DNA of 64,000 nucleotides from Bacteroidota bacterium (GTDB lineage: Bacteria; Bacteroidota; Rhodothermia; Rhodothermales; UBA10348): contig JAJCYP010000030.1 of NCBI GenBank assembly GCA_029262855.1, forward strand, positions 5,111 to 69,110, written 5' to 3'. Under the pieces are notes generated by a model. The model saw only the letters and a list, made by a program, of their open reading frames with translations. It ran no database searches and was not told the DNA's origin. Shown here piece after piece: positions 7,358 to 59,927 of the stretch; position 1 is the stretch's first letter, and each line of letters opens with the position of its first letter. A program made the position numbers and the translations under genes.

Positions 7358-7360
7358 CGA

Positions 7361-28031: not shown

Positions 28032-28138
28032 GTGGGACAGATCCGATTCAAATTGAGTGCCGGGAATCCCGTCCCTCGTGTATCGTCAGTTGTCGGCACG
28101 CTTCAAGGAGCATGTGGGTGCAATCAGGCCGATCCGAG

Positions 28139-28176
28139 AAAAAAAGGAGGCCCCGAACCGACAGGCCGGGGCCTCC
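28139..28176 (-). terminator. rho-independent terminator after the 28242..28970 gene
   Basis: On the minus strand: 10-bp stem GGAGGCCCCG/CGGGGCCTCC with an 11-nt loop, followed by a run of 7 T (+ strand A-run 28139-28145). Confidence 0.75.
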
Positions 28177-28241
28177 ATCCTCATAAGGAGAGGTAAGGCT
28201 TTCCGTGGATCAGGCAGAGGCCGCCGGAGATCCGGGGCCGG

Positions 28242-28970: not shown

Positions 28971-29007
28971 GGTTCTGGGTAGTTGGGTGTGCTCCTGCCG
29001 GCCGGCG

Positions 29008-29874: not shown

Positions 29875-29887
29875 CGTGTAATCCTGT

Positions 29888-30508: not shown

Positions 30509-30526
30509 GAGATTCTGTTTCGGTTC

Positions 30527-31138
30527 CTAGGCGCGAAGCCCCGCCGCATCGGCGGGCATCAGTTTCTTGAGATTCAGCAGGGCGTATCGCATTCGACCCA
30601 GGGCAGTGTTGATGGACACGTCAGTAAGGGCAGCGATTTCCCGGAAGGTGAGCTCCGCCTCATGTCGGAGGAGGAGAACTTCCCGCTGCTCGGGGGGCAG
30701 TTTGTCGATGGCCCCCCTAAGCCAGGTTCGCTGATCTTCCTGATCCATTTCCTGATCAACCAGTGGTGCGTCATCCGTGAGTTGATCCCAGTAGCCGATT
30801 CCGTCCTGGTCTGAATGCGCTTCCACATCCTGCCACCGTTTCCGGGTTCGGAGGTGATCCAGGGCTGCGTTTCTGGCGATGCGAAGCACCCAACCCAAGA
30901 AGCGGCCCTGTTGTGTGTACGAGGCCCGCTGCCCCTGAAGCGCCTTCAGGACACGAAGAAACGTCTCCTGGAAGAGGTCGTCGGCGGTACTCGGATCCTT
31001 GACCATTCCCAGCAGGAACCCATATACGCGATCCTGATGCCGCTCGACCAACGTTCGAATAGCGCGTTCGTCACCCCGCTGCGCGTAAGCGACAATGAGC
31101 TGTTCGTCGGTTGATGAGGACAGAACCTGTACGGACAA
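30527..31138 (-). CDS. ECF-type RNA polymerase sigma-70 factor
   Basis: Region 2 DDLFQETFLRVLKAL and region 4 EVLLLRHEAELTFREIAALTDVSINTALGRMRYAL. Confidence 0.9.
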   Translation of the reverse strand: MSVQVLSSSTDEQLIVAYAQRGDERAIRTLVERHQDRVYGFLLGMVKDPSTADDLFQETFLRVLKALQGQRASYTQQGRFLGWVLRIARNAALDHLRTRKRWQDVEAHSDQDGIGYWDQLTDDAPLVDQEMDQEDQRTWLRGAIDKLPPEQREVLLLRHEAELTFREIAALTDVSINTALGRMRYALLNLKKLMPADAAGLRA

Positions 31139-31200
31139 GGCCGAGCTGGAGGATTGGTTGGATCCGGTCCGGAGATCGGGTGATCCCCGGCGACTTCCGT

Positions 31201-31239
31201 CAATACAACGAAGCCGCGTGCAGGATTATTGCACGCGGC
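31201..31239 (-). terminator. rho-independent terminator after the LysM transglycosylase gene
   Basis: Perfect 10-bp stem GCCGCGTGCA/TGCACGCGGC (31213-31239) with a 7-nt loop. On the minus strand it is followed by TTCGTTGTATTG. Confidence 0.65.
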
Positions 31240-31277
31240 TCGTTCGAAAAGGTCCAACTGCGTGCTTGCGCAATTCC

Positions 31278-33464
31278 CTACTGGCCGGACACCAGCAGTT
31301 TCTTGCCTGGGTAGATACGATCCGACTTCAGGTCATTCCACCGGCGGATGTCCTGGATAGTCACACCGTACTTGCGGGCGATGTCGGTCAGGTTGTCCCC
31401 GCTGGCCACTACGTGGGTGGCCTGACTCTTCGCTGGCCGCTCCGCGGGGACGAGCTTCAAGGTCTGGCCCGTCCGAATACGACTGCCAGAGAGTCCATTC
31501 CATGCTCTGATGTCGGCGACCGAGACGCCGTGGCGGGAGGCGATGCCCGAAAGCGTATCGCCCGACTTGACCCGGTAGACGGTTTCGCGGGAAGGTTCTG
31601 GCCCGGAAGCCCCCTGTGCCAGGCCATTCCAGCCGTCTGCGACATAGATCACGAGCCTCTGGCCAGTACGGATGCGAGACCCTCTCAGGTTATTCCAGGA
31701 GCGAACCCGGCTCAGGCCTACACCATGGGCTTCCGCGATCTCCGAGATGGTGTCGCCGCGGCGCACCCTGTAGGTCACACGTTTTCCTGGTGTTTGAGGT
31801 GCGACGGCCGCAATGGCAACAGGGCCGCGAGGTTCTGTAGTCTGCATGTCCGGGATCACGGCCCGGTTTCTGAATTCGATCGGGTCCCGGGACAGGATCG
31901 GTGTCAGCGTCATCGCCCGGTACGCGATTGACATCGGCTCGGCTTCTGCAGCCGCCTGTGCAACCGGGAAGCTGTAGTCGGAGGTCGGGACAATCAAACG
32001 TTGTCCCGGCTTGATCAGACTCCCTCTCAATTGGTTGTCGGAGCGGAGTTGGGAGACAGAAACTCCATACGTGGAGGCAATCTCGGACAGCGTGTCTCCG
32101 CGGCGGACAATGTGCTCGCCGGGCGGGCGAAGGGCCCCCGGCGGAAGCTCGGCATATGAAGCCAGGAACTGGTCCGAGGTCCCGATGGGGAGCCGCAGCG
32201 GATAGGGCTTGGCTGAAGGCGGCAGGTACCCGCGACGAAGGGCAGGATTCAGGGCCTTTATGTCATCCAGTGAGGCTCCCGCCATTCGGGCCACGTCGCG
32301 AAGGGCGAGGCTGCCGCGCACCGGGACCAGCTCATAGGCGAACGGACTCCCGATAGTCTCCGGCTGAATTCCGTAGGCATCGGGATTCGACAGCATGATC
32401 GACGTGGCGATGTACTGCGGTATGTAGCCGCGCGTCTCCCTGGGGAGGTAGGGGTACATGTCCCAGAACGTCGGATTCTCGACGCCCTTCTCTCGTGCCC
32501 GTCGCTTGGCCCGGTTCAGGCACCTTGGACTGCAATTGTAGCCGGCCATGGCGACATGCCAATCGCCTTCTCTCTCGAAGAGATCCTTGAGGTGTTTGGC
32601 GGCGGCGCGGGTCGCTTTCTCGGGATCCATGCGCTCGTCTACCCAGCCGTCGACAACCAGGTCATAGGCCCGGCCGGTAGCGGCCATGAACTGCCACATC
32701 CCCACGGCAGATGCCCGACTGCGCACAGCCGGCCTCAGGCCGCTTTCTATCATGGCGAGGTACTTGAGCTCGTCCGGCACTCCTTCTTCCTCAAAGACCG
32801 TTTCAATGAGCGGAAACCACGTGTGTGCACGATCCGCCCAGGAAGCCAGCGTCTTGGGCCGCTTCTCCAGCAAGACCTGCATGGCCGTGGTGACCGCCTT
32901 GTTCACCGTCATGGGGACCTGCGTGTTCGCAATGGCCGCCGGCTCGGGAAGAAACGCGTCGCCCCCTGGAGAGTCCGTCGGGTTCTCCAGATTATTGAGG
33001 GCCGCGAACGTCTGTTCGCGTGCTGCAAACACCTCGTCGGCGCTCGCCAACCCGCCCGGTCCGAAGAATCGTTCGTGCTCGGTCAGAATGGTCTGATAGA
33101 GCTCCGCAAATCGTTCGTCCTGCAGGTACTCGAATCTCGCGAGCAAAGGCTGAATGTCCTCGACCATCGACGCAAGACGAGACTCTGCCAGGATAAAGTC
33201 CTCGTTGGCCTGCGCCTCCAGGACCGCCGCATGGCGGCGGTAGAGCTCGGCGACCGTGGGCAGGGGCTCAGGGTCCAGGCGCTGATCCGCAAGCGAGGCT
33301 GGCACGACAAGAGGCGGGGCGGGCAGAGTTTCCGCCGGGCGCAGCTGGAGGGCCCGAAAATCCTGGGCCGACGAGGTCCCGGGAGCAAGGATGAGAAACA
33401 CAAGGGCGGCCAGAGTCAAGGTCAGAGGAGACCCGCTAGCCCAGGTTCGATTCGATACGGTCAC
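31278..33464 (-). CDS. mltD: membrane-bound lytic murein transglycosylase D-like, SLT domain + 4 LysM repeats
   Basis: SLT catalytic region LKYLAMIESGLRP...GMWQFM. Four C-terminal LysM units, for example YRVRRGDTISEIAEAHGV and HVVASGDNLTDIARKYGV. Confidence 0.88.
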   Translation of the reverse strand: MTVSNRTWASGSPLTLTLAALVFLILAPGTSSAQDFRALQLRPAETLPAPPLVVPASLADQRLDPEPLPTVAELYRRHAAVLEAQANEDFILAESRLASMVEDIQPLLARFEYLQDERFAELYQTILTEHERFFGPGGLASADEVFAAREQTFAALNNLENPTDSPGGDAFLPEPAAIANTQVPMTVNKAVTTAMQVLLEKRPKTLASWADRAHTWFPLIETVFEEEGVPDELKYLAMIESGLRPAVRSRASAVGMWQFMAATGRAYDLVVDGWVDERMDPEKATRAAAKHLKDLFEREGDWHVAMAGYNCSPRCLNRAKRRAREKGVENPTFWDMYPYLPRETRGYIPQYIATSIMLSNPDAYGIQPETIGSPFAYELVPVRGSLALRDVARMAGASLDDIKALNPALRRGYLPPSAKPYPLRLPIGTSDQFLASYAELPPGALRPPGEHIVRRGDTLSEIASTYGVSVSQLRSDNQLRGSLIKPGQRLIVPTSDYSFPVAQAAAEAEPMSIAYRAMTLTPILSRDPIEFRNRAVIPDMQTTEPRGPVAIAAVAPQTPGKRVTYRVRRGDTISEIAEAHGVGLSRVRSWNNLRGSRIRTGQRLVIYVADGWNGLAQGASGPEPSRETVYRVKSGDTLSGIASRHGVSVADIRAWNGLSGSRIRTGQTLKLVPAERPAKSQATHVVASGDNLTDIARKYGVTIQDIRRWNDLKSDRIYPGKKLLVSGQ

Positions 33465-40244: not shown

Positions 40245-41939
40245 CTACCCGAAGACCTGAATCATGGCCATCGCTACACCCACAAGCGCTTCGCCCACGA
40301 TGAGTCCGGCGGCCACAGGAATGCCAACTTCCTCGCTGAAGGACTCGCCGCGACGGTTATCAACCACCAGCCGTGTCAGCGTGCCGAGACTGTACGTCAA
40401 TACGATGGAGAAGGGGAGGTAGAAGCCGAGCCCGACCAGAATTCCCAGGCCGCCAATTCCGGTGGCAGAGAGCAGCGCTCCCAGCCCGGCGCCAGCTGCG
40501 TATTTCGCGACCGGGACCCCCTCGCCCAGAATGCCCTGAATGACGCTGGCCAGCGCGGTCCCCTGCGGAGCCGGGAGCGCATCGCTGCCAATACCGTCTG
40601 ACTCGTGCAGCAGCACGATCAGCGCCATCACGATGATCGGCCCGAGCCAACTCCCCAGGAACTGTCCGATTTGCTGTTTTCTCGGTGATGCTCCGACCAG
40701 ATAGCCCGTCTTCAGATCCAGCATCAGGTCCGTCGCCTGTGCCATCGCGACACTGGCTGCTGCGCCCACCATGACCGAGGACACGATCGCCGCCTTCGTC
40801 CCGAGTCCACTCGAAATGAAAATCAGAATGGTGATGGCAATCAGTGTCATCCCGGACAGGGGAGACCAGTTCGTCCGCCCGATGCACTCGGAGAGAATCA
40901 CGCCAGACATCCAGATCCAGAGCGTCCCGAGGACGGCCATCAGCAGTCCGCGGCCAATGCCCATCTCCTGCGTCGACAGCGTTGCGATGACGAAGAGGAG
41001 AATCGCGGCGCCGCCGATCGCGAAGTACAGGAGCTTGATCGGCAGCTCGTCCTTCGAGAGGGTTGACTCCGTCTTCGCTGCCTGCTGCATGGATCGAACG
41101 GCGCCGACAATCAGCGGGAAGGACAGGAAGATTCCCGCAATGGCTCCGCCGATGAGCATCCCGATGCCCACGGGGCGGAAAATGAGAACGCGCAGTTCGC
41201 CGGGATCGGTGGAGGGAAGAACACCCTGGGCCGACATCAACGGTGCGAGGATCCAGTAGCAGACGTAGCCCCCCACGATGAAGAAGAACCCGCCTCGCCC
41301 GGCTATGTACGCGACTCCGAAAGTCAGCAGCGAGACGTACCAGACCCCGTTCATGTAGGCGGGAAGCCCGATGACGGCGCCGAGGTCGTAGTTCTCGAAA
41401 GGAGAGCCGCTGACGAATGCGTGGACAACCCCGCTGAGCGCCACGCCGGCCAGCAGATAGACCGCCTTCTGCATTCCGGCTCCCGGGCTCTTCAGGATCG
41501 TGGCCACGGCCACACCGCCCGGAAAAGTCAGCCGCTCGAAGTCGATCATCTGCTTGCGGAGGGGAATGATGAACGCGATGCCCATCACAGCACCCGCAAT
41601 ACAACCGAAAACCATCAGCGGGTAGCTGAAATCTGTTTCCCCAAGGATGAACAGCGCCGGAACTGAGAACATCATTCCTGCCGAGGCGCCGTTGACGCCC
41701 GAGGCGATGGTCTGGTTGATGTTGTTCTCGACAATGGAGTTGCGCCGCATGATGCCGCGCAGAATTCCGAAGCCCAGAATGGCGGCCAGTTCGGAGCCTT
41801 CGATCGAAAAGCCGAGGATCAGGGAGGCGTATCCGATCGACACGGCGATGACGGCGCCGAGGAGATACCCAACCAGAATGGCCGGGATCGTCAGCTCCGG
41901 ATAGGGTCCCCGCCGGATGGGTCGGGTGGTTGTAGCCAT
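40245..41939 (-). CDS. OPT-family oligopeptide transporter
   Basis: 564-aa polytopic protein (more than 12 hydrophobic segments). Its overall pattern (ELTIPAILVGYLLG..., GVNGASAGMMFSVPAL) is consistent with the OPT superfamily. Confidence 0.75.
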   Translation of the reverse strand: MATTTRPIRRGPYPELTIPAILVGYLLGAVIAVSIGYASLILGFSIEGSELAAILGFGILRGIMRRNSIVENNINQTIASGVNGASAGMMFSVPALFILGETDFSYPLMVFGCIAGAVMGIAFIIPLRKQMIDFERLTFPGGVAVATILKSPGAGMQKAVYLLAGVALSGVVHAFVSGSPFENYDLGAVIGLPAYMNGVWYVSLLTFGVAYIAGRGGFFFIVGGYVCYWILAPLMSAQGVLPSTDPGELRVLIFRPVGIGMLIGGAIAGIFLSFPLIVGAVRSMQQAAKTESTLSKDELPIKLLYFAIGGAAILLFVIATLSTQEMGIGRGLLMAVLGTLWIWMSGVILSECIGRTNWSPLSGMTLIAITILIFISSGLGTKAAIVSSVMVGAAASVAMAQATDLMLDLKTGYLVGASPRKQQIGQFLGSWLGPIIVMALIVLLHESDGIGSDALPAPQGTALASVIQGILGEGVPVAKYAAGAGLGALLSATGIGGLGILVGLGFYLPFSIVLTYSLGTLTRLVVDNRRGESFSEEVGIPVAAGLIVGEALVGVAMAMIQVFG

Positions 41940-42091: not shown

Positions 42092-44923
42092 CTACTTGAT
42101 GAGGAGCATCGATTTGGTGACGCTTGTGGTGGGCGTCTCGAGACGATAGAGGTAGCGGCCGGAGGCGAGACGTGTCGCGTCAAACCTTGCAGAATGCTGA
42201 CCGGCCGACATATCTCCATCCATCAGAATCTGAACCAGGCGGCCCGTCAGGTCATAGACCGAGAGGCGTACCTGACCGCTTTCAGGCAGGTTGAAGCTGA
42301 TCTGCGTGGATGGGTTGAAGGGGTTCGGGTAGTTCTGATCGAGCGACAACTCGCCCGCGGCGGCCGTTTCGAACACCGGCTTCTCCTGGACCGGGCTATA
42401 GGGCTTTGCGACGATACCCTTGGCTGCGGACTCGCCATTGCCCGGCAGCGTAAATCCACCGAGGTAGCTGTCCGCGAAGCGAGTGGCGTGCCAGACATAG
42501 GCCGCACGGGTCACACGGGTGTTCGGCCTGAAGGCGGCGTGTACCGTCGGCTGCAGATCATAGGGCCCCTGGGTCAGGCTGAAGTGGGCCTGCATCATCT
42601 GGAGGTCAAGAGCCAGTTGGACGTGGCCTCGGAGCTCCGCCGGGATGTCTGCCCAGTCCGAAAGCTCGATCCGGGCGCCCATGTATTCGACGCTGACCGG
42701 TCCGTCTCCGATGGCTTCGGCAGCCGCCTGAATGCCCAGGCTCTGGACGAGGGAGTAGGCCAGGCTCGCACGCCTGACTTTTCCTCGCCAGTCGAAGTTG
42801 TTGCCGTCCGAGAACATCACGCCGTCCCAGATACCGTCGGCATCCTTCAGAGATGCACCGCGGGCCGTGGCCGCTTCGGCGAATGGAGCATACCGGTCGT
42901 TGACGCCGGAAGGATTGGACCCATCAAGATTCTGCCACTGACGGACGCCGGTTCCCATGACGAGGTACTCGGACAGTTCGCCCCGGTTGAGCTTGTCGTT
43001 CGGGCGGAAACGGCGCTCGCTGTCACCGTCGACCAGGAAGCGGGCCACCGCAAACTTGATCATCTCCTCGGCCTCGTGTCCTGCAATGTCGTCCAGCCCC
43101 TCAAAGTTGGATTGCAGCAGGGAGATTGACCCGTCGATGTAGCCGGGCGCGGCGTAGCCGTTCGTGAGGCCCAGCGGGTCAACGGCATTGCCGGAGATGG
43201 AGCCGATGCCGCGGGTTGTAAGCTTCCAGGTGCCGGGTTCGCCGGGTGCCGAGACGCCTATGGTCTGACCGATAACCGGAAGCGAAATGGACGATCCGTA
43301 GCGCTTTCCTGTTGGCGAATAGAGGACGAGCGCGACCGTGTTGTCGCCAACGTTGGCGTTCGCAGCAACGATGCCGATGCCTTCGCCAACCTCAAACTCG
43401 TGGTATTCCGGCTCGCCGACCGGGTTGTTGAAGATGGAGAAGTTCTCGCCGCCGGCCGCGGTGACCGAAGCGGAGGAGTTGAAGTCGCGGAAAATGTTGA
43501 CCGTGGCACCAAAGCCCGCACTGGATCCCGCCTTGCGCGCCAGAACCTCCTGAACGGCGGCATACGCATTGGCGTAGCCGGCACCGCTTTCCCAACCGGC
43601 TTTCTGTGGCATGTTGGTGGCGGTCTTCTCCAGGATGTCCTTGACATCCGTCCAGTTCAGGGTCGGATCGGCCTCAAGCATCAGGGCGATGATGCCGGAC
43701 ACGTGCGGGCACGACATCGAGGTGCCGCTGGCCACCGTGTAGTACGGCTGGAATTCGTCGTGCATGCCGTCCTGCATCGAGCCGGTTGAGGCGTTCGCCG
43801 ATACCACGTCCACGCCTGGAGCCGTCACGGTTGGGCGATCCACCCAGGTGTAGGTCTTGCCGTCGTACGGATCGACGTACGTGCCTCCCTGGCCGATGCG
43901 TCCGCGACTGGAAAAGCTCGCCAGGTTTCCGTCCTTGTCGCCTGCCGCCACGAGGGTTACCCAAGGCGCCTTCTTGTAGTTGCCGGTGATGGACGCAAAG
44001 CCAGGACCCGAGTTTCCGGCAGAGAAGACCACCATGATGCCCCGGTCGGCGACGCGCTTGGTGGCAACATTCGTCGGGTGATCCGGCTGGAAGTCAGTGC
44101 CGCTGTCGCTGCTTGAGCCAAACGAGTTGGAGACAACGCGGATGTTGTACTGGAACTGGTGCGTGAGGGCGTAATCGAATCCGCCGATGGTGTCCAGGAT
44201 GAAGATGACGGCGCCTGAACCATATCCGATGATGTCGGCCCCCGGGGCCACGCCTTCAAACTTGCCACCGGATGCCGCGCCCGTGCCCGCCACGATACCC
44301 GAGACGTGGGTTCCGTGGCCTCCGCCGTGGTCGGTGTTGGGCACGTTCTCCGTATAGGTTACCGGGAGCAGACTGCTCCAGGAGGCGAGGTTGGTCTGTC
44401 CGGCCACATTCTGGACCACGTTGTCCTTGAGGTCAGGATGGGTCCCGTCGACACCGGAGTCGTTGATCAGAACGCCGACGCCCTGTCCCGAGTAGGGCAG
44501 TCCCATGGCCGTACGGAAATTGGGGTCATTGCGCAGCCGGTCGACACCGGTGATGGCGGTCGAACCTTCGTTTTCCCATTCCAGCTGCTCGTTGAGCCAG
44601 ATGGAGCGGACACCGGAAATGCCGGCGATCCGCTCAATCTGGGCGGGAGTCGCGAGTACGCCTGCGATGGGCAGGCTCTGGAAGTAGAAGCCGCTGACGC
44701 CGACGGTCTGCAGGGCAGCCACCTGACCGGCGTTGAGTTGACCCTCACCGTGGAAGGTGACAACAACCTGAAGCTGGTCCAGGGCAGACGATGAGTTCAG
44801 GGCGCTCTGCAGCGAACCGCCCATGGTCTGGGCCGTGAGGTTCGAGGGAGCGGAGAGGAGCAGGGCAACGACGAGGGCCGTGAACCGGAGTCCTCTGGCG
44901 AGTGTGTGGAGCGTGTTCTTCAT
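42092..44923 (-). CDS. secreted S8 (subtilisin-family) serine peptidase with three SLH-like repeats and T9SS C-terminal sorting domain (paralog 1)
   Basis: Signal peptide. Catalytic triad contexts LINDSGVDGTHPDL, GGHGTHVSG and SGTSMSCPHVSG. C-terminal NYPNPFNPSTQISF...VYDLTGRLV...GRYLYRL...LLIK. Confidence 0.9.
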   Translation of the reverse strand: MKNTLHTLARGLRFTALVVALLLSAPSNLTAQTMGGSLQSALNSSSALDQLQVVVTFHGEGQLNAGQVAALQTVGVSGFYFQSLPIAGVLATPAQIERIAGISGVRSIWLNEQLEWENEGSTAITGVDRLRNDPNFRTAMGLPYSGQGVGVLINDSGVDGTHPDLKDNVVQNVAGQTNLASWSSLLPVTYTENVPNTDHGGGHGTHVSGIVAGTGAASGGKFEGVAPGADIIGYGSGAVIFILDTIGGFDYALTHQFQYNIRVVSNSFGSSSDSGTDFQPDHPTNVATKRVADRGIMVVFSAGNSGPGFASITGNYKKAPWVTLVAAGDKDGNLASFSSRGRIGQGGTYVDPYDGKTYTWVDRPTVTAPGVDVVSANASTGSMQDGMHDEFQPYYTVASGTSMSCPHVSGIIALMLEADPTLNWTDVKDILEKTATNMPQKAGWESGAGYANAYAAVQEVLARKAGSSAGFGATVNIFRDFNSSASVTAAGGENFSIFNNPVGEPEYHEFEVGEGIGIVAANANVGDNTVALVLYSPTGKRYGSSISLPVIGQTIGVSAPGEPGTWKLTTRGIGSISGNAVDPLGLTNGYAAPGYIDGSISLLQSNFEGLDDIAGHEAEEMIKFAVARFLVDGDSERRFRPNDKLNRGELSEYLVMGTGVRQWQNLDGSNPSGVNDRYAPFAEAATARGASLKDADGIWDGVMFSDGNNFDWRGKVRRASLAYSLVQSLGIQAAAEAIGDGPVSVEYMGARIELSDWADIPAELRGHVQLALDLQMMQAHFSLTQGPYDLQPTVHAAFRPNTRVTRAAYVWHATRFADSYLGGFTLPGNGESAAKGIVAKPYSPVQEKPVFETAAAGELSLDQNYPNPFNPSTQISFNLPESGQVRLSVYDLTGRLVQILMDGDMSAGQHSARFDATRLASGRYLYRLETPTTSVTKSMLLIK

Positions 44924-44935
44924 GGGTAAAGGCTT

Positions 44936-47389
44936 CTAGTATTGTGCGAAGTAGCGGACCGCGGCGACGGCGTAGTCGGCGCGGGTCGCGTTCGCAGTGG
45001 GCTCAAAACGGGCGGTCACGGTGGGCTCGGCGTCGAATGCCCCCTGACTGAGGTCGAAGAAGACGTTGAGCAGGCCCAGGTCGATAGCGATTTGCACGTA
45101 GCCGGCCTTTGGGCCCAGCCCGTCTGCATCGGTGACGGGGACCCTGGTCCCGTTGTAATTGGCGGTTACCGAGCCTTCAAAACCGGCCGCGGCGGACGAC
45201 AGTCCGAGGCTCTGGACCAGCGAGTAGGCCAGGTCGGCCCGGCTGACCGATCCGCTCGGGTTGAAGGAGCCGCTCGTTTCGAGGACGCCGTCGGCGATCT
45301 GAGCACGGTCCCGCAAGGCGGATCCGCGGGTGGCGACGGCTTCGGCGAAGGGCGCCTTGTCAGCAGACACGTCACCGAAGGTGGTGGAACCGTCTCCCTG
45401 ACGGATGCCGGCCCCGAGAACCAGGTACTCGGCCAACTCGATACGTGTCAGCCGCTGGTCCGGAGCGTAGTTGCCTCCGGGAAGTCCGTCGATGAGTTGC
45501 TCGGCGACGGCCGATTGGATGGCCGCGGACGCCGGATGACCGTCGATGTCATTCAGGCCCGTGAAGCCGTTAACGGTCTCAAAGGAAATCTTGCCGTCCA
45601 CCTGCTCAGGCAGGGACACCGTGTTGTTTCCTGTCCCGTTCTGGATGCCACGAATCTCGAGTGTCCAGGTGCCGGGCATCGGGCTCGTGACGATCTGGGC
45701 ACGCGCATATTCCAGCGTGAAGAGGAGCGTGGTGCCACTCAGGTACTCGGTGCCATCGGGCGCGATCAGTACCGGATAGATGGGATTTCCGGTCTCCCCG
45801 GCAACGCCGCCCGCGGAGAAGCGGGCAGCCAGGGTCGTCAGTCCAGCCGGGACCTGGAAGGCCATCCGGTTTCCATCGGCCGACAGTTCCGGCCGAGGGT
45901 TGAAGTCGATCGAAAACGCGGTGTCGATGCGGTCCGAGTCGACAAAAGCGTTGAAGTCCCGGGTGCTCGTGCGGGTCGTCCCATAGTCCCGGAGGCCGAG
46001 GGCCATCTGAACGGCGGCGTACGCGTTGACGTATCCCGATCCGACCTCCCAGCTTTCGCGGCCGGGCATGTTTGTGGCCGACCGCTGCAGAATGTCCTTG
46101 ACCTCATCGGGGCTCAATGATGGATTCGCTTCCAGTATGAGGGCAACGATGCCGGCCGCATGTGGCGTGGCCATCGAGGTGCCGCTCATGTGGGTGTAGA
46201 AGGCAGCATTCGCACCCAGTACATCCACATCCGCCTCGGCTGCCAGCAGTGGCAGGGAGCCGGTGGTGGCCCGGGTCGAGATGATGTCGACTCCTGGGGC
46301 GACGATGGTAGGCTCGTTGAAGTAGGTCCAGGAGCGGTTGTCTGGGGTCGTGAAATTGCCGGAGTCCCCTTCCACTCCGCGTGATGAGAAGTCAACCAGC
46401 GTGGCTGCCTTCGTGCCGGCACCCACCGAGATCACCCAGGGAGCCACGGCATACGGGTTGTGGGTATCCTCATCCGGGCCAGAGTTGCCCGCAGCAAACA
46501 GCACGGTGATACCGCGCTTGTAGGCGGCATAGGACGCGACGTTGATCGGGTGGTCAGGATTGAAGGTGCCGCCTGAGCCCCATGAATTGGTAATGACCCG
46601 GATGCCATAGCGGAACTGATTGGTGATGGTCCAATCGAAGCCGCCTATCGTGTCCAGGATGAGCAGGACTGCGCCGGATCCGTAGCCGATCATGTCAGCG
46701 CCCGGCGCGACACCGGCGTGCTGACCACCCGACTGCTGACCGGTCCCGCCGACCGTTCCGGCGACGTGCGTACCGTGTCCCGAGCCGAGGTCGGTGTTTT
46801 CCTGATCTTCGAGATATACGATGGGCGCCAGATCATCGACGCCGTGAGGATTGGTCGCTCCCTGCACATTCTGCACGACATGCCTCAGATCGGGATGTGA
46901 CGCATCGATTCCTGAGTCGTGAACCACGACGCCTACGTTCTTGCCGCTGAACGGAAGACCCATGGCGTTCCGCATGCCGGAGTCCGAGACGAGCTTGTTG
47001 ACCCCGGTCAGGTCTCGAGCGTCCTTGTTGAAGTAGGTCTGCTGCTCGTTGGCCCAGATCGAGCGAACCCCGCTCATCCCGGCGACTTGGAGGATCTGGT
47101 CTGGCGTGGCAACGATGCCCGCGATGGGGAGGCTCTCAAAAAAGACGCCCTGGCTGATGCCCAGATCGGTCAGCGCCTGGACCTGTGAGGCGTCAATCGC
47201 GCCTTCTCCATGGAAGGTCACGACGACAGTCATTGGTTCGGTGGGCTCCGCAGACGCCAGCGTGGCATCCAGCCCGGGTCCGAAGACAGCACTTTGTGCC
47301 CGGCTGACACCGGAACCTGCCAACAGCAGGAGGGCCACCATGGCAACCGGGCGCAACCACGGCGAGAACAAGTTGGTAGAAAATAACAT
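44936..47389 (-). CDS. secreted S8 serine peptidase with SLH-like repeats, no T9SS tail (paralog 2)
   Basis: Signal peptide. VVHDSGIDASHPDL, GSGHGTHVAG and SGTSMATPHAAG. It ends after the third SLH-like module (..AVRYFAQY). Only 12 nt separate it from paralog 1. Confidence 0.9.
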   Translation of the reverse strand: MLFSTNLFSPWLRPVAMVALLLLAGSGVSRAQSAVFGPGLDATLASAEPTEPMTVVVTFHGEGAIDASQVQALTDLGISQGVFFESLPIAGIVATPDQILQVAGMSGVRSIWANEQQTYFNKDARDLTGVNKLVSDSGMRNAMGLPFSGKNVGVVVHDSGIDASHPDLRHVVQNVQGATNPHGVDDLAPIVYLEDQENTDLGSGHGTHVAGTVGGTGQQSGGQHAGVAPGADMIGYGSGAVLLILDTIGGFDWTITNQFRYGIRVITNSWGSGGTFNPDHPINVASYAAYKRGITVLFAAGNSGPDEDTHNPYAVAPWVISVGAGTKAATLVDFSSRGVEGDSGNFTTPDNRSWTYFNEPTIVAPGVDIISTRATTGSLPLLAAEADVDVLGANAAFYTHMSGTSMATPHAAGIVALILEANPSLSPDEVKDILQRSATNMPGRESWEVGSGYVNAYAAVQMALGLRDYGTTRTSTRDFNAFVDSDRIDTAFSIDFNPRPELSADGNRMAFQVPAGLTTLAARFSAGGVAGETGNPIYPVLIAPDGTEYLSGTTLLFTLEYARAQIVTSPMPGTWTLEIRGIQNGTGNNTVSLPEQVDGKISFETVNGFTGLNDIDGHPASAAIQSAVAEQLIDGLPGGNYAPDQRLTRIELAEYLVLGAGIRQGDGSTTFGDVSADKAPFAEAVATRGSALRDRAQIADGVLETSGSFNPSGSVSRADLAYSLVQSLGLSSAAAGFEGSVTANYNGTRVPVTDADGLGPKAGYVQIAIDLGLLNVFFDLSQGAFDAEPTVTARFEPTANATRADYAVAAVRYFAQY

Positions 47390-47659: not shown

Positions 47660-50422
47660 CTACTTGACCAGGAGCATTGAGCGGGTCAGAACCCCTCGCG
47701 GCGTCGTCAGACGATACAGGTATCGTCCCGTGGCCAGTCCGCGTCCGTCGAAACGCACTCGGTGGATTCCGGAAGGCAAAACGCCGTCGTGCAGGACCCC
47801 GACACGCCGACCGGTCAGGTCGAAAACTTCCAGAAGTGCATGAGTCTCCGATGCCAGGGTGAAAGCGATCGTCGTGACCGGATTGAAGGGGTTCGGGTAG
47901 TTCTGCGTCAACTCGGGTCCGCCATCGACGGGCGTGTCCTGGACCGTCTCGACCGAGCGGCGCGGGCTCCGGGTTTCGAATCCGCCCTTGGCGGTGAAGC
48001 CCAGGTCCGGAAGCGGAGCGGACAGGAAAGAGTCCGAGAAGCGAGAAACGTATACCGCGTACTCGCTCCTTGTGACTCTGTCGTCAGGCTCATACAGCGG
48101 GCCCTGAGGCGAGTCCGCTGCTTCCATAATGCCGAGGTCAAGCGCCAGCTGAACATAGCCGCGAAGCTCGGGCGCAATGGCCGACCAGTCGGCCAGTTCC
48201 AGATTGCCGTCGTAGACAGGGCGCTCTCCGTGAGACCGGGCCGCCTCCTGGAGGGCCAGGCTCTGCACAAATGAGTAGGCCAGCCTTTCCCGCGTGACCT
48301 TACGCTTGGGTTGGAAAGCACCCTCCCGAAGTCGCATCACCCCGTCCAGAAGCCCGTCGGTGTCCATCAGAGCGGCCCCGGTTGATAGCACAGCAGCGGC
48401 AAAGGGCGCTTCGGACTCCTTCAGGTCCTCGGGTCCACCCTCGTCCAGCGCCTTGCGTATCCCCGCTCCCATAACGAGGTATTCGGCAATCTCAATGCGC
48501 CTGAGACGATCCTCCGGGCGAAAGCGTCGGGCACGATCTCCATCCACCAGGCGACGCGAAACGGCGTAGGCAATGACAGATTCATCGGGATGGCCGGAAA
48601 TGTCACCAAGGCCCTCGAGGTCAGTGGCCAGGAGGGCAACGTGGCCTCGAACCTGTCCGGGAACGCCAATCCCGTTCGTGAGGCCGAAGGCGTCCAGGCG
48701 AAGGCCTGCCCAGGCTCCAACTCCTCGCACCTCCAGCGTCCATTCTCCGGGGACTGCCGGGGCTGTGACGGTGACACCCGCCTGATATGCCGGGATCGAA
48801 ACGCCTGACTCGTATTGCTGGCCAACCGGATTCGTCAGGACGAGAGCGGCCGTGTTTTCCCCGATCGTGGCGGCGGCCGAGACGAGGTCGGTATCCTCAG
48901 CGACCGGAAATACCAGGCGCTGCGATGTACCGGCGGGCGAGAAGGCGAGATCAAACGGAATTGCGGGCTGCGACGGAGCCAGCGTGACGTTGGCGTTGAA
49001 GGACCGCCGGAGATTCACCGTTTCGGCGAGTCCGGCCTGTCCGTCGCGATGCAGGACGGTTTGGACAACCGCCGCGTGAGCGTTGACGTACCCTGCCCCG
49101 GCTTCCCATGCTGCGCCGCCGCTCATGTTCGTCGCCGTGCTCTCAAGGATGTCCTTGACGCGCCGCCAGTCCAACGTTGGATCGGCCTCAAGCATCATCG
49201 CGATGATGCCGGCAACATGCGGGCATGCCATCGAGGTGCCCGTGGCCACGGCATAGTAGGGCACGAACTCAGGGTGGAGCGACCAGTGCATCGATCCGGT
49301 CGAGGCGTTGGCGGAGATCACCGCCGTACCCGGGGCCGTGATTGTCGGACGATCGACCCAGGTGTACACGGTCCCGTCCCGGCCGGTGAACGTGCCGCTC
49401 TCACCAATCCGTCCTCGCGAAGAAAAACTCCCCAATCGCCCCTGATTGTCCCCTGCGGCAACGGTCACCACCCAGGGAGCCTTCTTGTAGTTGCCCGTGA
49501 TCGTGCCGGAAACGGGTCCAGAGTTGCCGGCCGAAAAGACGACGATGATCCCTCGATCGGCCAGCTTCTTCGTCGCGACGTTTGTCGGATGATCAGGCTG
49601 GAAATCAGTACCGGAGTCATCGGATTCCCCAAACGAGTTGGAAACCACCCGAATATTGTATTCGAACTGATGGGTGAGGGCATAATCGAATCCGCCCAGC
49701 GCATCCAGAACGAGTACCACGGCACCGGAACCGTAGCCGATGATGTCGGCTCCCGGGGCTACACCCTCGAATTTTCCGCCTGACGCCGCGCCCGTGCCCC
49801 CCAGAATGCCTGCGACGTGAGTGCCGTGCCCGCCGCCGTGATCTGTGTTCGGGATGCCACCAACGTAGGTTACCGGGAGAAGGGAGCTCACCGCAGCGAG
49901 GTTGGTCTGACCCGCTACGTTTTCCACCACGTTGTCTTTAAGGTCGGGATGTGTCGCGTCAATTCCGGAGTCGTTGACCAGAACGCCGATACCCCGGCCC
50001 GAGTACGGAAGGCCAGCTGCAGTCCTCAAGCCTGCATCGGCGCGCAGTCGGTCCACACCGGTCGCCGCGGTCGGCCCGCGGTTTTCGAGTACCAGACGAT
50101 CGTTCAGCCAAATCGAGCGGACGGAAGAGAGCGCAGCGATCGCTTCAATCTGGCCGGGCGTGGCCAGAAGGCCCGCGATGGGCAAACTGCGAAACCAGAA
50201 CCCGGTGACTCCGATCGCCTGCAATTCGGCTATCTGCCCACTGGAGATGGGTCCTTCGGCTTCGAAGGTGACCACCACCTCGAGCTGCTCCAGGGGCGCC
50301 GCGGATGCCAGCGCCTCTTGAAGGGTAGGTCCGAGCGTCTGAGCCGACGCCGGCGAGGCAATCGGCAGAAGGACCACTGTCAGTGCAGCGAGGACGGAAA
50401 ACCGGCGGGCGGATAGGCTCAC
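47660..50422 (-). CDS. secreted S8 serine peptidase with SLH-like repeats and T9SS C-terminal sorting domain (paralog 3)
   Basis: LVNDSGIDATHPDL, GGHGTHVAG and TGTSMACPHVAG. C-terminal NYPNPFNPVTTIAF...VFDLTGRRV...GRYLYRL...LLVK. A GTG at 50422 gives the signal peptide (M)SLSARRFSVLAALTVVLLPIASPASA. The ORF-track extension to 51136 is rejected. Confidence 0.85.
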   Translation of the reverse strand: MSLSARRFSVLAALTVVLLPIASPASAQTLGPTLQEALASAAPLEQLEVVVTFEAEGPISSGQIAELQAIGVTGFWFRSLPIAGLLATPGQIEAIAALSSVRSIWLNDRLVLENRGPTAATGVDRLRADAGLRTAAGLPYSGRGIGVLVNDSGIDATHPDLKDNVVENVAGQTNLAAVSSLLPVTYVGGIPNTDHGGGHGTHVAGILGGTGAASGGKFEGVAPGADIIGYGSGAVVLVLDALGGFDYALTHQFEYNIRVVSNSFGESDDSGTDFQPDHPTNVATKKLADRGIIVVFSAGNSGPVSGTITGNYKKAPWVVTVAAGDNQGRLGSFSSRGRIGESGTFTGRDGTVYTWVDRPTITAPGTAVISANASTGSMHWSLHPEFVPYYAVATGTSMACPHVAGIIAMMLEADPTLDWRRVKDILESTATNMSGGAAWEAGAGYVNAHAAVVQTVLHRDGQAGLAETVNLRRSFNANVTLAPSQPAIPFDLAFSPAGTSQRLVFPVAEDTDLVSAAATIGENTAALVLTNPVGQQYESGVSIPAYQAGVTVTAPAVPGEWTLEVRGVGAWAGLRLDAFGLTNGIGVPGQVRGHVALLATDLEGLGDISGHPDESVIAYAVSRRLVDGDRARRFRPEDRLRRIEIAEYLVMGAGIRKALDEGGPEDLKESEAPFAAAVLSTGAALMDTDGLLDGVMRLREGAFQPKRKVTRERLAYSFVQSLALQEAARSHGERPVYDGNLELADWSAIAPELRGYVQLALDLGIMEAADSPQGPLYEPDDRVTRSEYAVYVSRFSDSFLSAPLPDLGFTAKGGFETRSPRRSVETVQDTPVDGGPELTQNYPNPFNPVTTIAFTLASETHALLEVFDLTGRRVGVLHDGVLPSGIHRVRFDGRGLATGRYLYRLTTPRGVLTRSMLLVK

Positions 50423-50554
50423 TGTGCGCAGGGTGGCTGGGTCCTGGAATACAGCAGAGAAAATGGAAATCAATCGCCCGTTCTGCAGTCGGCACAGGAC
50501 GCAATGGAGCGTAAGAAGGTGGACCTCGAGGCCGTAGGCGGGACGGTATTCGTT

Positions 50555-50572
50555 TGTAGGAAAAGTCCTACA
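50555..50572. promoter_or_regulatory. 18-bp perfect palindrome TGTAGGA-AAAG-TCCTACA (operator candidate)
   Basis: Perfect 7-bp inverted repeat with a 4-nt spacer, in the divergent region between S8 paralog 3 and the Asp-box propeller gene. 16/18 identical to 47616-47633. Confidence 0.45.
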
Positions 50573-50579
50573 GCGATCC

Positions 50580-50597
50580 TGTGACATATTTGTGACC
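50580..50597. promoter_or_regulatory. direct repeat TGTGACA-TATT-TGTGACC (11-bp period), same half-site as 36953-36970 on the opposite strand
   Basis: Its reverse complement, GGTCACA-AATA-TGTCACA, matches TGTCACA-GAAC-TGTCACA at 36953. It sits 7 nt from the palindrome. CATATTTG (50585-50592) resembles a -7 element. Confidence 0.4.
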
Positions 50598-50674
50598 ATT
50601 GCACCTGTACATTCCTGAATGCGGCACCGGTCGGTGGCCGCGCTACCCCCTTGGCACAAACCCCATTTAAGACA

Positions 50675-53600
50675 ATGAGGACCCACACACTCCTCCGTGC
50701 GGCAGGCCTGGCCCTGTGCAGCGTACTGGTTTTGATCCCGACTGCTGACGCGCAAAAGCTGGATCTCGACAAGCTGAAGGCCATGCAGGCGCGGGCGATT
50801 GGCCCGGCCGGTATGAGTGGCCGCGTCACGGCCATCGATGTAGTCCTGAGAGACCCCGCGGTGATCTACGCCGGCACCGCCTCGGGCGGACTGTGGCGAT
50901 CCACGAATGCAGGGATCAGCTGGGAGCCCGTCTTCGACGACCAGCCGGTGCACTCCATTGGAGCCGTGGCCGTAAACCAGAGCAATCCGGACGTGATCTG
51001 GGTCGCAACAGGAGAGGGCAACCCTCGCAACAGCGCCAACGCTGGAAACGGCATCTACAAGTCGATCGATGGCGGGCGAAGCTGGCGGCACCTTGGCCTC
51101 GAGAACAGCCGGACGATTCACAGGCTCATCCTGCATCCCACCAATCCGGACGTGGCCTACGCGGGTGTTCAGGGCCCCCCGTGGGGCGAGGGAGAGGAAC
51201 GCGGCGTCTACAAGACTACCGACGGTGGCGAGACCTGGGTCCGGATTCTGTATGCCAACGTGAAGACCGGAATTGCTGATCTGGTCATGGATCCCGTGAA
51301 TCCCGACAAGCTCATCGCCGCAATGTGGGAATTCCGCCGGTGGCCCTACTTCATGAAGTCGGGTGGCGAAGGATCCGGGATCTGGGTCACGTATGATGGT
51401 GGAGAAAACTGGACCCAGCGCACCAGCGAAGACGGGCTGCCAGAGGGCGAACTCGGTCGGATCGGCCTGTCGATCGCGCCGAGCGATCCATCGATCGTCT
51501 ATGCCATTGTCGAAGCGAAGGAAAATGTGTGGCTACGGTCCACCGACGGTGGCTTTTCGTTCGAAGAGGTCAACAAGGGACAGCCGGTCACCAATCGCCC
51601 GTTCTACTACAACGACATCTTCGTCGACCCAGTAAACGAGAATCGGGTCTACTGGCTCTCGTCCAGTGTCCGAGTCACCAATGACGGGGGACGGACCTTC
51701 GAGCCCATCCCGCCACAGGGTACCCCGGGTGGCGGTATCCATCCGGACCACCACGCATTCTGGGTTCATCCGGATGATGCGGATTACCTCATCGAAGGGA
51801 ACGACGGTGGCCTCAACATCTCCCGTGATCGTGGCAAGACCTGGCGCTTCGCGGAAAACCTCCCGCTGGCCCAGTTCTACCACATCAACGTGGACAACAG
51901 CATTCCCTACAACGTGATGGGAGGGCTGCAGGACAACGGCTCCTGGATCGGCCCTGCCTACCTCTGGAGAGCCGGTGGAATCCGGAATTCGGACTGGAAG
52001 GAGGTAGGATTTGGAGACGGTTTCGATGTCACGGTGATGCCGGACAACGAACGATTCATGTACTCGATGAGTCAGGGCGGCAGTCTGCGTCGATTTGACT
52101 CGGAGACCGGGACCGGCGTCAGCATCCGACCGATCCATCCGGATGGTGAGTTCCTCCGGTTTAATTGGAATGCGGCCTTTGCCCAAAGTCCCCAGAATGC
52201 TGCTACGATCTACTATGGCAGCCAGTACCTACACAAGTCCACCGATCGTGGTAACAACTGGACGATCATCTCGCCGGATCTGACAACGAACGATCCGGAG
52301 AAGCAAAAACAGATCGACTCGGGAGGACTCAACTATGATGTCACCGGTGCCGAGAACTACACCACCATCGTCTCGATTGCCCCGAGTCCACTCGACGGGA
52401 ACGTGATCTGGGCCGGGTCGGATGACGGGAACGTCCAGGTGACGCGTGATGGGGGAGCAACTTGGACCAATACGGTCGGCGGAATGCGCGGGCTCGCCAA
52501 GGGCGGTTGGGTCACCCAGATCAAGGCGTCCACCTACAATGCCGGCGAGGCGTTCGTGGTGATTGAGGATCATCGCCGCAACAACTGGGAGACGTACCTC
52601 TACCACACCCGCGATTACGGTTCCACGTGGTCCCGGATGGCGGAGGACGCCTGGGGCTATGCCCTCTCGTTCGTACAGGACCCTGTTCAACCCCGTCTCA
52701 TGTTCCTCGGAACGGAGTTCGGCGTATGGGTCTCCGTGGACGCTGGAGCGAACTGGACCCAGTGGACGAATGGCATGCCGACCATGTCCGCCATGGATAT
52801 GGTCATACATCCCCGCGAACATGACCTCGTGGTCGGGACGTTTGGTAGAGCGATTTACGTTCTCGATGACATTCGGCCACTGAGGGCGATCGCCACGGAA
52901 GGTGCGGAGATCCTGGATGCTCGCCTGAAGGCAATCGCGGCCCCGGATGCTTATCTCGCCCAATGGGGACAGGCAGCGGGGACCCGGTTCTCGGCCAGTG
53001 CCATGTTTGAAGGGGAGAACCGTGATCGCGGAGGCATGATCTCCTACATCGTCAATCGTCCCGAGCGGTCGGGTGACGGTGAGCGGGCAGGAGGCGAGGC
53101 AGATGCCGAACGGCCGGCGGCCATGCGGGCGCGCCGAGCGGCGGCAGGAGGCCCAGGACGGGCTGGACGCGCAGGCGGCGCTCGGAATCGGGTCAAGATC
53201 GAGATTGTAAACGGCGATGGCGAGGTGATCCGGACGGCGAACGGACCCGCCGAGCCCGGACTGAATCGCTACTTCTGGCGGCTTCGCCAGAAGGGGTTCA
53301 GTCAGCCCGGAGGCGGGTTCCGTGGCGGCGGTCGATTCGGTGGTGGCGGTGGCGCCGACCAGGAACCGGCCGGACCCGACGTGCTGCCGGGCACCTACAA
53401 GGTGAGGCTGACGATGGGTCAGGCGAGCGACTCGACCAGCATCACCGTGCATCCGGACCCGAGGCAGGACTACAACCGCGCCGGCGCTGAGGCCCGGGTC
53501 GCGCTGTACCAGAGCATGGAGGGACTGTTCACCGCCGCAACTGACGCCCTCAAGCAGCTGACCGATGCCGGCGAGGCCCACGACTGGATTGGCGATAAGC

Positions 53601-53959
53601 TGTCGGCGATGGACGAGGAGGACCGCGGAGATCTGATGGAAGAGCACCGTGCGGTCAAGGACTCCCTGGACGCCGTGAGGGCCGTGATCTTTGGCGAGCA
53701 GGGAGCACAGGGCATCAGGCGTGATCCGACTACCGTCTCTTCCAGGATGCGAACCGCACTCGGATACATCAGCCGGAGCACGGACATGCCCGGAGCCACC
53801 GAGGATGCGGCCATGGCCCAGAGTCGCGCCGCGATCTCCGAGCTCGTCGAGTTGGTGAACGGTTTCATTGGCGGCCGATGGGCAGAGTATGTCCAGACCA
53901 TCGAGGGCGCCAATCTTTCGTTGTTCACCCCCATGGAGCCCGTTCGCTTGAACAACTGA
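50675..53959 (+). CDS. Asp-box (BNR) repeat, VPS10/sortilin-like beta-propeller protein (paralog A)
   Basis: Signal peptide MRTHTLLRAAGLALCSVLVLIPTADA at ATG 50675. About 11 Asp-box-like motifs (SIDGGRSW, TTDGGETW, TYDGGENW, SRDRGKTW, TRDGGATW...). Confidence 0.8.
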   Translation: MRTHTLLRAAGLALCSVLVLIPTADAQKLDLDKLKAMQARAIGPAGMSGRVTAIDVVLRDPAVIYAGTASGGLWRSTNAGISWEPVFDDQPVHSIGAVAVNQSNPDVIWVATGEGNPRNSANAGNGIYKSIDGGRSWRHLGLENSRTIHRLILHPTNPDVAYAGVQGPPWGEGEERGVYKTTDGGETWVRILYANVKTGIADLVMDPVNPDKLIAAMWEFRRWPYFMKSGGEGSGIWVTYDGGENWTQRTSEDGLPEGELGRIGLSIAPSDPSIVYAIVEAKENVWLRSTDGGFSFEEVNKGQPVTNRPFYYNDIFVDPVNENRVYWLSSSVRVTNDGGRTFEPIPPQGTPGGGIHPDHHAFWVHPDDADYLIEGNDGGLNISRDRGKTWRFAENLPLAQFYHINVDNSIPYNVMGGLQDNGSWIGPAYLWRAGGIRNSDWKEVGFGDGFDVTVMPDNERFMYSMSQGGSLRRFDSETGTGVSIRPIHPDGEFLRFNWNAAFAQSPQNAATIYYGSQYLHKSTDRGNNWTIISPDLTTNDPEKQKQIDSGGLNYDVTGAENYTTIVSIAPSPLDGNVIWAGSDDGNVQVTRDGGATWTNTVGGMRGLAKGGWVTQIKASTYNAGEAFVVIEDHRRNNWETYLYHTRDYGSTWSRMAEDAWGYALSFVQDPVQPRLMFLGTEFGVWVSVDAGANWTQWTNGMPTMSAMDMVIHPREHDLVVGTFGRAIYVLDDIRPLRAIATEGAEILDARLKAIAAPDAYLAQWGQAAGTRFSASAMFEGENRDRGGMISYIVNRPERSGDGERAGGEADAERPAAMRARRAAAGGPGRAGRAGGARNRVKIEIVNGDGEVIRTANGPAEPGLNRYFWRLRQKGFSQPGGGFRGGGRFGGGGGADQEPAGPDVLPGTYKVRLTMGQASDSTSITVHPDPRQDYNRAGAEARVALYQSMEGLFTAATDALKQLTDAGEAHDWIGDKLSAMDEEDRGDLMEEHRAVKDSLDAVRAVIFGEQGAQGIRRDPTTVSSRMRTALGYISRSTDMPGATEDAAMAQSRAAISELVELVNGFIGGRWAEYVQTIEGANLSLFTPMEPVRLNN

Positions 53960-53994
53960 TGCTATTCTTCCGGACCGAAACCCGCCGCCCTGCC

Positions 53995-54062
53995 ATGCGC
54001 CTTCTATTCCTCGCCGTCACACTTGTCGTTGTCGCACCCGTCATCGCCCAGGAGAAGCCTCC
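53995..54062 (+). other. orphaned signal-peptide-encoding segment, out of frame with the downstream amidohydrolase ORF
   Basis: ATG 53995 encodes MRLLFLAVTLVVVAPVIAQEKP. That frame terminates at TGA 54130-54132, while the amidohydrolase frame is open but start-less over the same stretch. Confidence 0.6.
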
Positions 54063-54128
54063 TGGGATGTCTCGGCCCCGTTCGGCCCCACGTCGGAGGT
54101 CTCCTTCACAACGGACGAGGGCACATGG

Positions 54129-58840: not shown

Positions 58841-58861
58841 GAAGGGCTCCGGCCTCCACGC

Positions 58862-59770: not shown

Positions 59771-59927
59771 CTGTCCGGCCCGCGACGGTGCGAACGGGGC
59801 CTACATTGCCGGGACACTTGATGGAAATGACACTGGCCGACACACGTCCGCCGCTCCCGGTGATGGTCACCGGTCCGGCTCTCTTCTATATTGCAGCAAC
59901 ACCCTCTCACAACGACTCCCCCAACCG

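Follow-up and report, generated by a model that had tools for sequence, protein, structure and literature searches.

A widespread subtilase family with a C-terminal SLH triad and a probably lineage-added type IX sorting tag at a Rhodothermales locus

Triads of S-layer homology (SLH) repeats are the textbook wall anchors of monoderm bacteria and of a few diderms among the Terrabacteria. The C-terminal sorting domain (CTD) of cargo of the type IX secretion system (T9SS) serves primarily as a signal for export and is cleaved off once transport is complete, and T9SS-secreted subtilases are known in Bacteroidota, the Tannerella forsythia mirolase being one such enzyme. SLH-bearing subtilases are known in Firmicutes, e.g. 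NP_624131 of Thermoanaerobacter tengcongensis (PMC2605481). Here we analyze a locus at which the two kinds of module are found in one protein. It lies within a stretch of 64,000 nucleotides, referred to below as the window, from a Bacteroidota bacterium of the order Rhodothermales (assembly GCA_029262855.1, contig JAJCYP010000030.1, positions 5,111 to 69,110), where three tandem open reading frames (ORFs) on the minus strand, between positions 42092 and 51136, encode paralogous S8 subtilases that we call P1, P2 and P3. The evidence makes it probable that these proteins belong to a widespread family of secreted subtilases to which a T9SS tag was added in particular lineages, and that their SLH triad is a functional module for binding anionic glycans.

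P1 (42092–44923, minus strand) is a pre-pro-subtilase of 943 amino acids, in which a signal peptide, a propeptide, the S8 domain, a beta (PPC-like) domain, the SLH triad, a linker and the T9SS CTD follow one another in this order. The segment 42095–43105 (minus strand) encodes residues 607–943 and holds the three SLH-type repeats, the linker, which is disordered, and the CTD, which is of type A. At the Pfam gathering cut-off of 20.8 bits for SLH (PF00395), all three paralogs scored as whole proteins, P1 with 26.0 bits (residues 611–650), P2 with 49.1 bits and P3 with 37.1 bits (in two stretches), the passing stretch being repeat 1 in each case. When the repeats were scanned singly, repeat 1 of P1 was above the cut-off, repeats 2 and 3 of P2 and repeat 3 of P3 fell just below it (18.0, 17.6 and 20.6 bits, respectively), and repeats 2 and 3 of P1 and repeat 2 of P3 gave no Pfam SLH match. 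Profile–profile alignment with hhalign brought the three repeats into register family-wide on the pattern FxPxxxVTRxxLA (P = 2e-7, 1e-4 and 4e-5, the first value for repeat 1 against repeat 2), and the family profile of the whole region matched the SLH triad of Bacillus anthracis Sap (3PYW) collinearly, with an E-value of 3.7e-6. An AlphaFold2 model of P1 residues 596–943 has a mean per-residue confidence (pLDDT) of 85, with disorder limited to residues 830–853 of the linker. The best PDB match of this model in Foldseek was again 3PYW (E 1.2e-6, target template-modelling (TM) score 0.70, 214 columns), followed by the SLH domain of SpaA (6CWL, TM 0.69). The profile register, the collinear match to 3PYW and the modelled fold all support a complete triad in P1, and the three-repeat SLH module of P1–P3 is genuine but atypical. 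The three SLH-like modules described in an earlier note, made on the sequence alone, are thus borne out: the profile search on which that note had staked its proposal scored SLH above the cut-off in all three proteins, and the fold matches the triads of Sap and SpaA.

Repeat 1 of P1 (42944–43105, minus strand; residues 607–660), which accounts for the Pfam score of 26.0 bits, carries NRGE as its TRAE-type motif, with Arg647, and is modelled with helices at residues 619–629 and 647–657. Repeat 2 (42725–42922, minus strand; residues 668–733), recognized by its alignment to Sap SLH2, has the motif RRAS with Arg718 and modelled helices at 679–686 and 718–728; compared with Sap it contains an insertion of 12 residues and lacks Gly29. 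Repeat 3 (42458–42676, minus strand; residues 750–822) has the motif TRAA with Arg806, helices at 762–773 and 806–822 and strands within 780–797 in the model, and a family-specific beta-hairpin insert, TQGPYDLQP; the conservation of Q785, G786 and P800 in this repeat extends to all lineages.

The C-terminal tail of P1 is a type-A T9SS CTD (42095–42337, minus strand; residues 863–943, NYPNPF ... KSMLLIK). It passes the NCBIfam model TIGR04183 with 38.2 bits (cut-off 23 bits) and the Pfam model PF18962, Por_Secre_tail, with 36.5 bits at residues 865–938 (cut-off 27 bits), the matches extending over residues 865–941 overall. In the AlphaFold2 model the tail forms a seven-strand beta sandwich with a pLDDT of about 90, and Foldseek matched it to the CTD of mirolase (8QB1, target TM 0.59) and to PorZ (5M11). 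The tail of P3 passes TIGR04183 with 27.8 bits and, at 19.6 bits, is below the PF18962 cut-off; P2 has no CTD match with either model, and, of the proteins encoded in the window, a CTD model specific for the family recognizes P1 and P3 alone. Two of the three paralogs therefore do combine SLH repeats with a T9SS CTD, as had been proposed, and P2 is the one that does not. P2 ends about 8 residues past SLH3, like the non-T9SS homologs, and its stop codon is separated from the start of P1 by only 12 nt, so that no decayed CTD can sit there. In P1, the triad and the CTD are joined by a disordered linker (42338–42457, minus strand; residues 823–862), with pLDDT <50 at model residues 235–258. Given how T9SS cargo is processed, removal of the CTD is expected to take place in this linker.

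The N-terminal parts of the three proteins are those of secreted subtilases. Peptidase_S8 (Pfam PF00082) matches P1, P2 and P3 with E-values of 4.6e-41 (residues 146–450 in P1), 4.7e-46 and 2.7e-39, respectively. The catalytic motifs of P1 are intact (DSGVD at 155, GHGTH at 202 and GTSM at 400), and the motifs DSG[VI]D, GHGTH, NS[FW]G and GTSM, comprising the catalytic Asp, His and Ser and the oxyanion Asn, were found in all three paralogs, which are therefore predicted to be active enzymes. The nearest solved catalytic domain to that of P1 is Tk-SP (3AFG; E 1.3e-34, residues 138–457), and weak PPC matches in close homologs identified the beta-rich stretch that separates the protease domain from the repeats. 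The Sec signal peptide of P1, as read from its sequence (44831–44923, minus strand; residues 1–31), ends in LTA/Q, and an A/Q junction is present at the predicted cleavage site of all three proteins, which fits the habit of Bacteroidota signal-peptidase I substrates of having Gln at position +1. P2 (44936–47389, minus strand) is a paralog of 817 amino acids with its SLH triad at 44939–45556 and no CTD. P3 (47660–50422, minus strand) has about 920 amino acids, an SLH triad at 48020–48610, a CTD at 47663–47908 and a likely GTG start at 50422. This start was preferred over the long P3 ORF reaching up to 51136, as the upstream stretch has no homology to P1 or P2; the 238 codons concerned (50423–51136, minus strand) overlap the divergent promoter region. 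The P3 gene call of 975 amino acids on a Logan contig also seems too long.

The distribution of the family relates the CTD to the host. Whereas a search with the triad alone returned only 22 proteins, mainly short fragments, the number rose to 74 with a profile. The matches include CTD-less proteins with S8 and SLH domains from Bacillota (Cohnella kolymensis, Bacillus fonticola, Halalkalibacterium halodurans and Terrihalobacillus) and from Gammaproteobacteria (Lysobacter xanthus and Steroidobacteraceae). PF18962 was also present in 19 of the 74, the named ones originating from Hymenobacter wooponensis, Pontibacter and a Rhodothermales metagenome-assembled genome (MAG), whose protein P0083 has S8, SLH and CTD. 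Among species-representative genomes, the S8/beta-domain/SLH-triad architecture is encoded at 468 loci, and we read locus composition, tail lengths and neighbours from the best 80 of these, 35 from Bacillota, 42 from Pseudomonadota, two from Chloroflexota and one from Balneola. Only the Balneola copy has a CTD, in a tail of 114 residues; 78 of the other 79 end 0–7 residues past the match, and the remaining one (L018) runs 32 residues further, in a tail that gave no CTD match. In the triad, the Bacillota members share 44–52% identity with P1. From an exhaustive HMMER run over 1.84 billion representatives at 50% identity, the top 150 matches were taken; 78 of these bear the triad, and 12 of the 78 also carry the CTD. 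All CTD-bearing members with a named organism come from the Bacteroidota/Chlorobiota group (Hymenobacter, Pontibacter, Balneola and Rhodothermales), Rhodothermales and Balneola both being placed in the Fibrobacterota–Chlorobiota–Bacteroidota (FCB) group.

Because the named CTD bearers all belong to Bacteroidota/Chlorobiota and the members from other lineages are CTD-less, the distribution points to an enzyme, imported or shared, that was tagged in particular lineages. The family itself consists of secreted subtilases of about 830 residues, with a signal peptide, a propeptide, an S8 domain, a PPC-like beta domain and a C-terminal triple-SLH module, and, the occurrence of the CTD follows the host's secretion system rather than the SLH triad. 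Most simply, a mobile family of proteases with a C-terminal SLH triad would have gained a local export tag on settling in T9SS lineages. P1–P3 thus represent a cosmopolitan protease family with a local export tag, and are not evidence of a new anchoring system. The pairing of SLH repeats with a CTD, which had been called unusual, is in fact recurrent in Bacteroidota/Chlorobiota, where it looks like lineage-specific tagging, while Bacillota, Chloroflexota and Gammaproteobacteria have the same protein body without the CTD. The combination is already present in public databases under automatic names; our literature searches, which covered SLH with T9SS cargo, SLH in Bacteroidetes and Rhodothermus, and SLH subtilases in Lysobacter, found no paper in which SLH and T9SS cargo are combined or the combination is discussed. 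In a neighbour-joining tree, which is rough and was used as a hint only, the CTD proteins of Hymenobacter and Pontibacter form one clade beside Bacillota, and P1–P3 together with the Rhodothermales MAG protein lie near the gammaproteobacterial group. This layout suggests more than one acquisition of the CTD, or losses as in P2.

Some members of the wider set have unusual layouts. In P0102, a metagenomic representative of 1687 amino acids, an M6 (InhA-like) metalloprotease and a MAM domain come after the SLH triad, so that the triad can be internal, between two proteases. The Hymenobacter wooponensis homolog (L004, 8854–11227) is split into an S8 ORF of 379 amino acids and an adjoining ORF of 408 amino acids with SLH and CTD; it adjoins the gene for a chagasin-type inhibitor, I42, and that for an alpha-2-macroglobulin of 1856 amino acids. 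P0207 (2082 amino acids) was rejected as an independent protein with SLH and CTD, as its 'CTD' matches are internal FlgD_ig-like repeats. Within the best 80 loci, tandem paralog pairs occur in 18, all of them from Bacillota, and no conserved synteny was found between these loci and the neighbours in the window. Conserved neighbours are DUF6689 and an FHA-GAF protein in the gammaproteobacterial loci, and a GAF-HisKA_3 kinase with a LuxR-type response regulator in those of Bacillota; csaB is not among the conserved neighbours.

Whether the triad binds a glycan can be approached through the residues that do so elsewhere. In SpaA the TRAE arginines (SLH-Arg43, in the core helix) bind the pyruvate carboxylate, and SLH2 is the main ligand site in both SpaA and Sap (PMC8942822). 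A TRAE-type arginine is present in each repeat of P1 (R647, R718 and R806), and the three arginines are conserved at 94/97/100% in the CTD group, 100/97/98% in Bacillota and 100/94/100% in Pseudomonadota, with about 60 further triad positions likewise equally conserved across the three groups. Such equal conservation in every lineage argues that the triad is still functional, and it suggests that the module is under the same selection in the CTD group, in Bacillota and in Pseudomonadota.

Several observations weigh against a functional glycan-binding triad on a T9SS-exported protease. SLH-Trp13 is absent from all three repeats throughout the family, Bacillota included; position 13, where Sap has Trp, is occupied by Pro or Glu in SLH1, and SLH2 and SLH3 have no conserved Trp. 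SLH-Gly29 is kept only in SLH1 (LVDG), and its counterpart in the SLH2 alignment is a variable residue that adjoins the 12-residue insertion, a loss that again holds family-wide, also in Bacillota. As these contacts are missing, the term 'glycan binding' is an extrapolation from Sap and SpaA. The binding site is remodelled, so that an anionic glycan is a plausible ligand, whereas the classical 4,6-pyruvyl-ManNAc is not assured. The missing Trp13 and SLH2 Gly29 lend some support to the earlier suggestion that the repeats bind something else; the arginines, on the other hand, are kept. P1 is in addition the most deviant paralog, since it differs from the consensus of the family at about 10 triad positions that are otherwise at least 85% conserved (E617, F629, S651, G673, N708, W712, H767, Q778, V810 and W811), where P2 retains nearly all consensus residues; the deviations of P1 may reflect relaxed or shifted selection. 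As to the export route, the 43 Pfam-scanned genes of the window and the 9 kb past its end yielded none of the T9SS core genes, and use of the T9SS is therefore inferred from the CTD and from the lineage, given that FCB-group members, including Rhodothermales, use this system. P2, without a CTD, leaves its route over the outer membrane unexplained. Finally, our literature searches turned up no paper on the family to which P1–P3 belong.

The deviations in P1, together with the failure of Pfam to score its repeats 2 and 3, are also what would be expected if the triad in diderms were structural or vestigial, i.e. if it contributed to stability or oligomerization or were decaying after transfer from Bacillota, with no role in ligand binding. 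In line with a structural role, the SLH domain of the endolysin LysBT1 contributes also to stability and trimerization (PMC12285257). We nevertheless regard this as very improbable, since the triad of the CTD-bearing group is as conserved as that of Bacillota, all three arginines included, and has been kept in three paralogs that are just 42–49% identical to one another in this region.

As the CTD is removed after transport, CTD and triad would act in sequence and need not compete as anchors. The earlier claim that two anchoring logics meet in one protein thus holds for their co-occurrence in P1 and P3, but the collision between them is weaker than was stated. In the pathway that we propose, the protease would be exported by Sec to the periplasm, the CTD would guide it through the T9SS and would then be cut off within the disordered linker, and the mature protease, now ending in the triad, would bind a polysaccharide of the cell's own surface or matrix or one associated with the substrate. 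Peptides released nearby would be imported, possibly via the transporter encoded next to P1.

This transporter, a protein of 564 amino acids of the oligopeptide transporter (OPT) family (40245–41939, minus strand; PF03169 on record for the Logan contig), is encoded on the same strand as P1, 152 nt downstream. Together with a membrane protein of 177 amino acids it occupies the stretch directly downstream of P1 (39702–41939, minus strand), and, judging from adjacency, they may form a unit that couples proteolysis to uptake. The proteases are flanked on the plus strand (50651–62987) by genes for two Sortilin/BNR-repeat proteins of 1102 and 1019 amino acids, a fusion of a PD40 beta-propeller with an amidohydrolase (1004 amino acids), an Asn-synthase-like protein and a glutaminase. 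With the Sortilin/BNR proteins, the PD40-amidohydrolase and the glutaminase nearby, the neighbourhood fits the scavenging of peptides and amino acids. Directly past position 64000 lies a surface-polysaccharide cluster (L003, 4674–13656) with genes for an epimerase, a Wzc-like kinase, Wzy_C, a WecG/TagA-family glycosyltransferase (PF03808), two GT4 glycosyltransferases and a beta-helix protein; judging by this gene content, the cluster could make a polymer of the N-acetylmannosamine (ManNAc) type, which would bear on the question of the SLH ligand.

Such a polymer would be of consequence if the polysaccharide bound by the triad were that of the producer. After passage through the T9SS, the triad would then bind, on the outer surface of the cell, an anionic polysaccharide, pyruvylated or of another kind, be it O-antigen, a polymer resembling anionic lipopolysaccharide (A-LPS) or capsule, and provide a non-covalent surface retention of T9SS cargo that is added to, or replaces, the PorU-mediated attachment to LPS. 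Beyond the conserved TRAE arginines, with their role in binding pyruvate carboxylate in SpaA, this idea is favoured by the WecG/TagA-family glycosyltransferase of the polysaccharide cluster, a family that installs ManNAc or its uronic acid, ManNAcA, and by the adjacent OPT transporter, which would make proteolysis close to the cell advantageous. We consider it unlikely, however, because the 43 scanned genes and the 9 kb beyond the window end contain no csaB/PF04230 pyruvyl transferase, the same triad with the same residues is found in Gammaproteobacteria and Bacillota, whose surfaces differ greatly, and Trp13 and the SLH2 Gly29 are missing. CsaB-like enzymes are, moreover, reported mainly from Firmicutes and Cyanobacteria (PMC6801904). 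The Pfam records for the two genes read from Logan contigs, those for the OPT transporter and a GFO_IDH_MocA oxidoreductase, likewise list neither csaB nor T9SS core genes. Were a triad outside a diderm outer membrane to attach a T9SS-exported protease non-covalently to an anionic polysaccharide, perhaps a pyruvylated one of the ManNAc type, which we hold to have a low probability, T9SS cargo could be retained independently of PorU and A-LPS, and anchoring by SLH–glycan contacts would extend from the cell wall of Terrabacteria to the outer face of the FCB-group envelope.

The conservation of the triad independently of the producer's envelope type would be expected if the bound polymers belonged to other cells or to necromass, e.g. 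the pyruvylated secondary cell wall polymers (SCWPs) of Gram-positive bacteria. The triad would then steer the protease from outside, much as lytic enzymes are guided by their cell-wall-binding domains, and the SLH domain of LysBT1 has been shown experimentally to bind the cell surface in this manner (PMC12285257). The abundance of the family in Lysobacterales and other diderms without a known SLH-ligand system, which would release the enzyme to the outside, is consistent with such targeting. We nonetheless find it doubtful, as this support is purely circumstantial, the Bacillota members may use the triad just for self-anchoring, and the remodelled main site speaks against classical 4,6-pyruvyl-ManNAc as the ligand. 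A widespread subtilase family with a lineage-added tag and a functional anionic-glycan-binding triad therefore remains our preferred explanation.

Other genes of the window bear on the lineage of the host. The PccB encoded there falls into one cluster, at 90% identity or more, with a protein from a Rhodothermales MAG. A Bat (Bacteroides aerotolerance) operon at 4695–12030 (minus strand), with BatA, BatD, VWA, TPR and DUF58 genes, is typical of the Bacteroidota group. The stretch 26742–33464 (minus strand) includes a set of cell-wall remodelling genes, with an Amidase_3 protein, a sigma factor of the extracytoplasmic function type and an SLT lytic transglycosylase of 728 amino acids with four LysM repeats. 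An Rfam scan of the window gave no matches.

For the window itself, the outcome is mostly clarifying, the domain pair being a standard lineage-specific export tag on a mobile enzyme family. Of broader relevance is that FCB-group bacteria and, in much greater numbers, Gammaproteobacteria secrete proteases that bear a well-conserved triad. We know of no SLH ligand system in these hosts, and the abundance of the family in such diderms is the more notable point. As the family keeps the pyruvate-binding arginines without the Trp and Gly contacts, it offers a good test of SLH recognition outside the classical SCWP, and also of whether T9SS cargo can be held non-covalently.

Compared with the described systems, the P1 triad shares with Sap of B. 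anthracis (3PYW, 6BT4) and SpaA of Paenibacillus alvei (6CWL) the three tandem repeats, the three-prong fold, a collinear alignment and a TRAE-type arginine in every repeat. It differs from both in that the P1 family has no SLH-Trp13, keeps Gly29 in SLH1 only and contains the 12-residue insertion in SLH2 and the conserved beta-hairpin insert in SLH3; furthermore, the triad of P1 is placed at the C-terminus of an enzyme and not in an S-layer protein, and it occurs in a diderm host from the FCB group. The SLH subtilases of Firmicutes likewise have SLH repeats after an S8 catalytic domain, but they stop at the triad and belong to a monoderm wall, whereas P1 and P3 add the linker and the T9SS CTD. 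With T. forsythia mirolase (8QB1) and PorZ (5M11), P1 has the C-terminal beta-sandwich sorting domain in common, although no SLH triad is described for them. Tk-SP of Thermococcus kodakarensis (3AFG), in which a C-terminal beta-jelly-roll domain comes after the catalytic domain, is closest to P1 in its catalytic domain and lacks both the SLH triad and the CTD. The endolysin LysBT1 differs in its phage origin, its amidase catalytic domain and its single, trimerizing SLH repeat, yet it likewise carries an SLH module on a hydrolase, where the module binds the surface from outside and stabilizes the enzyme (PMC12285257).

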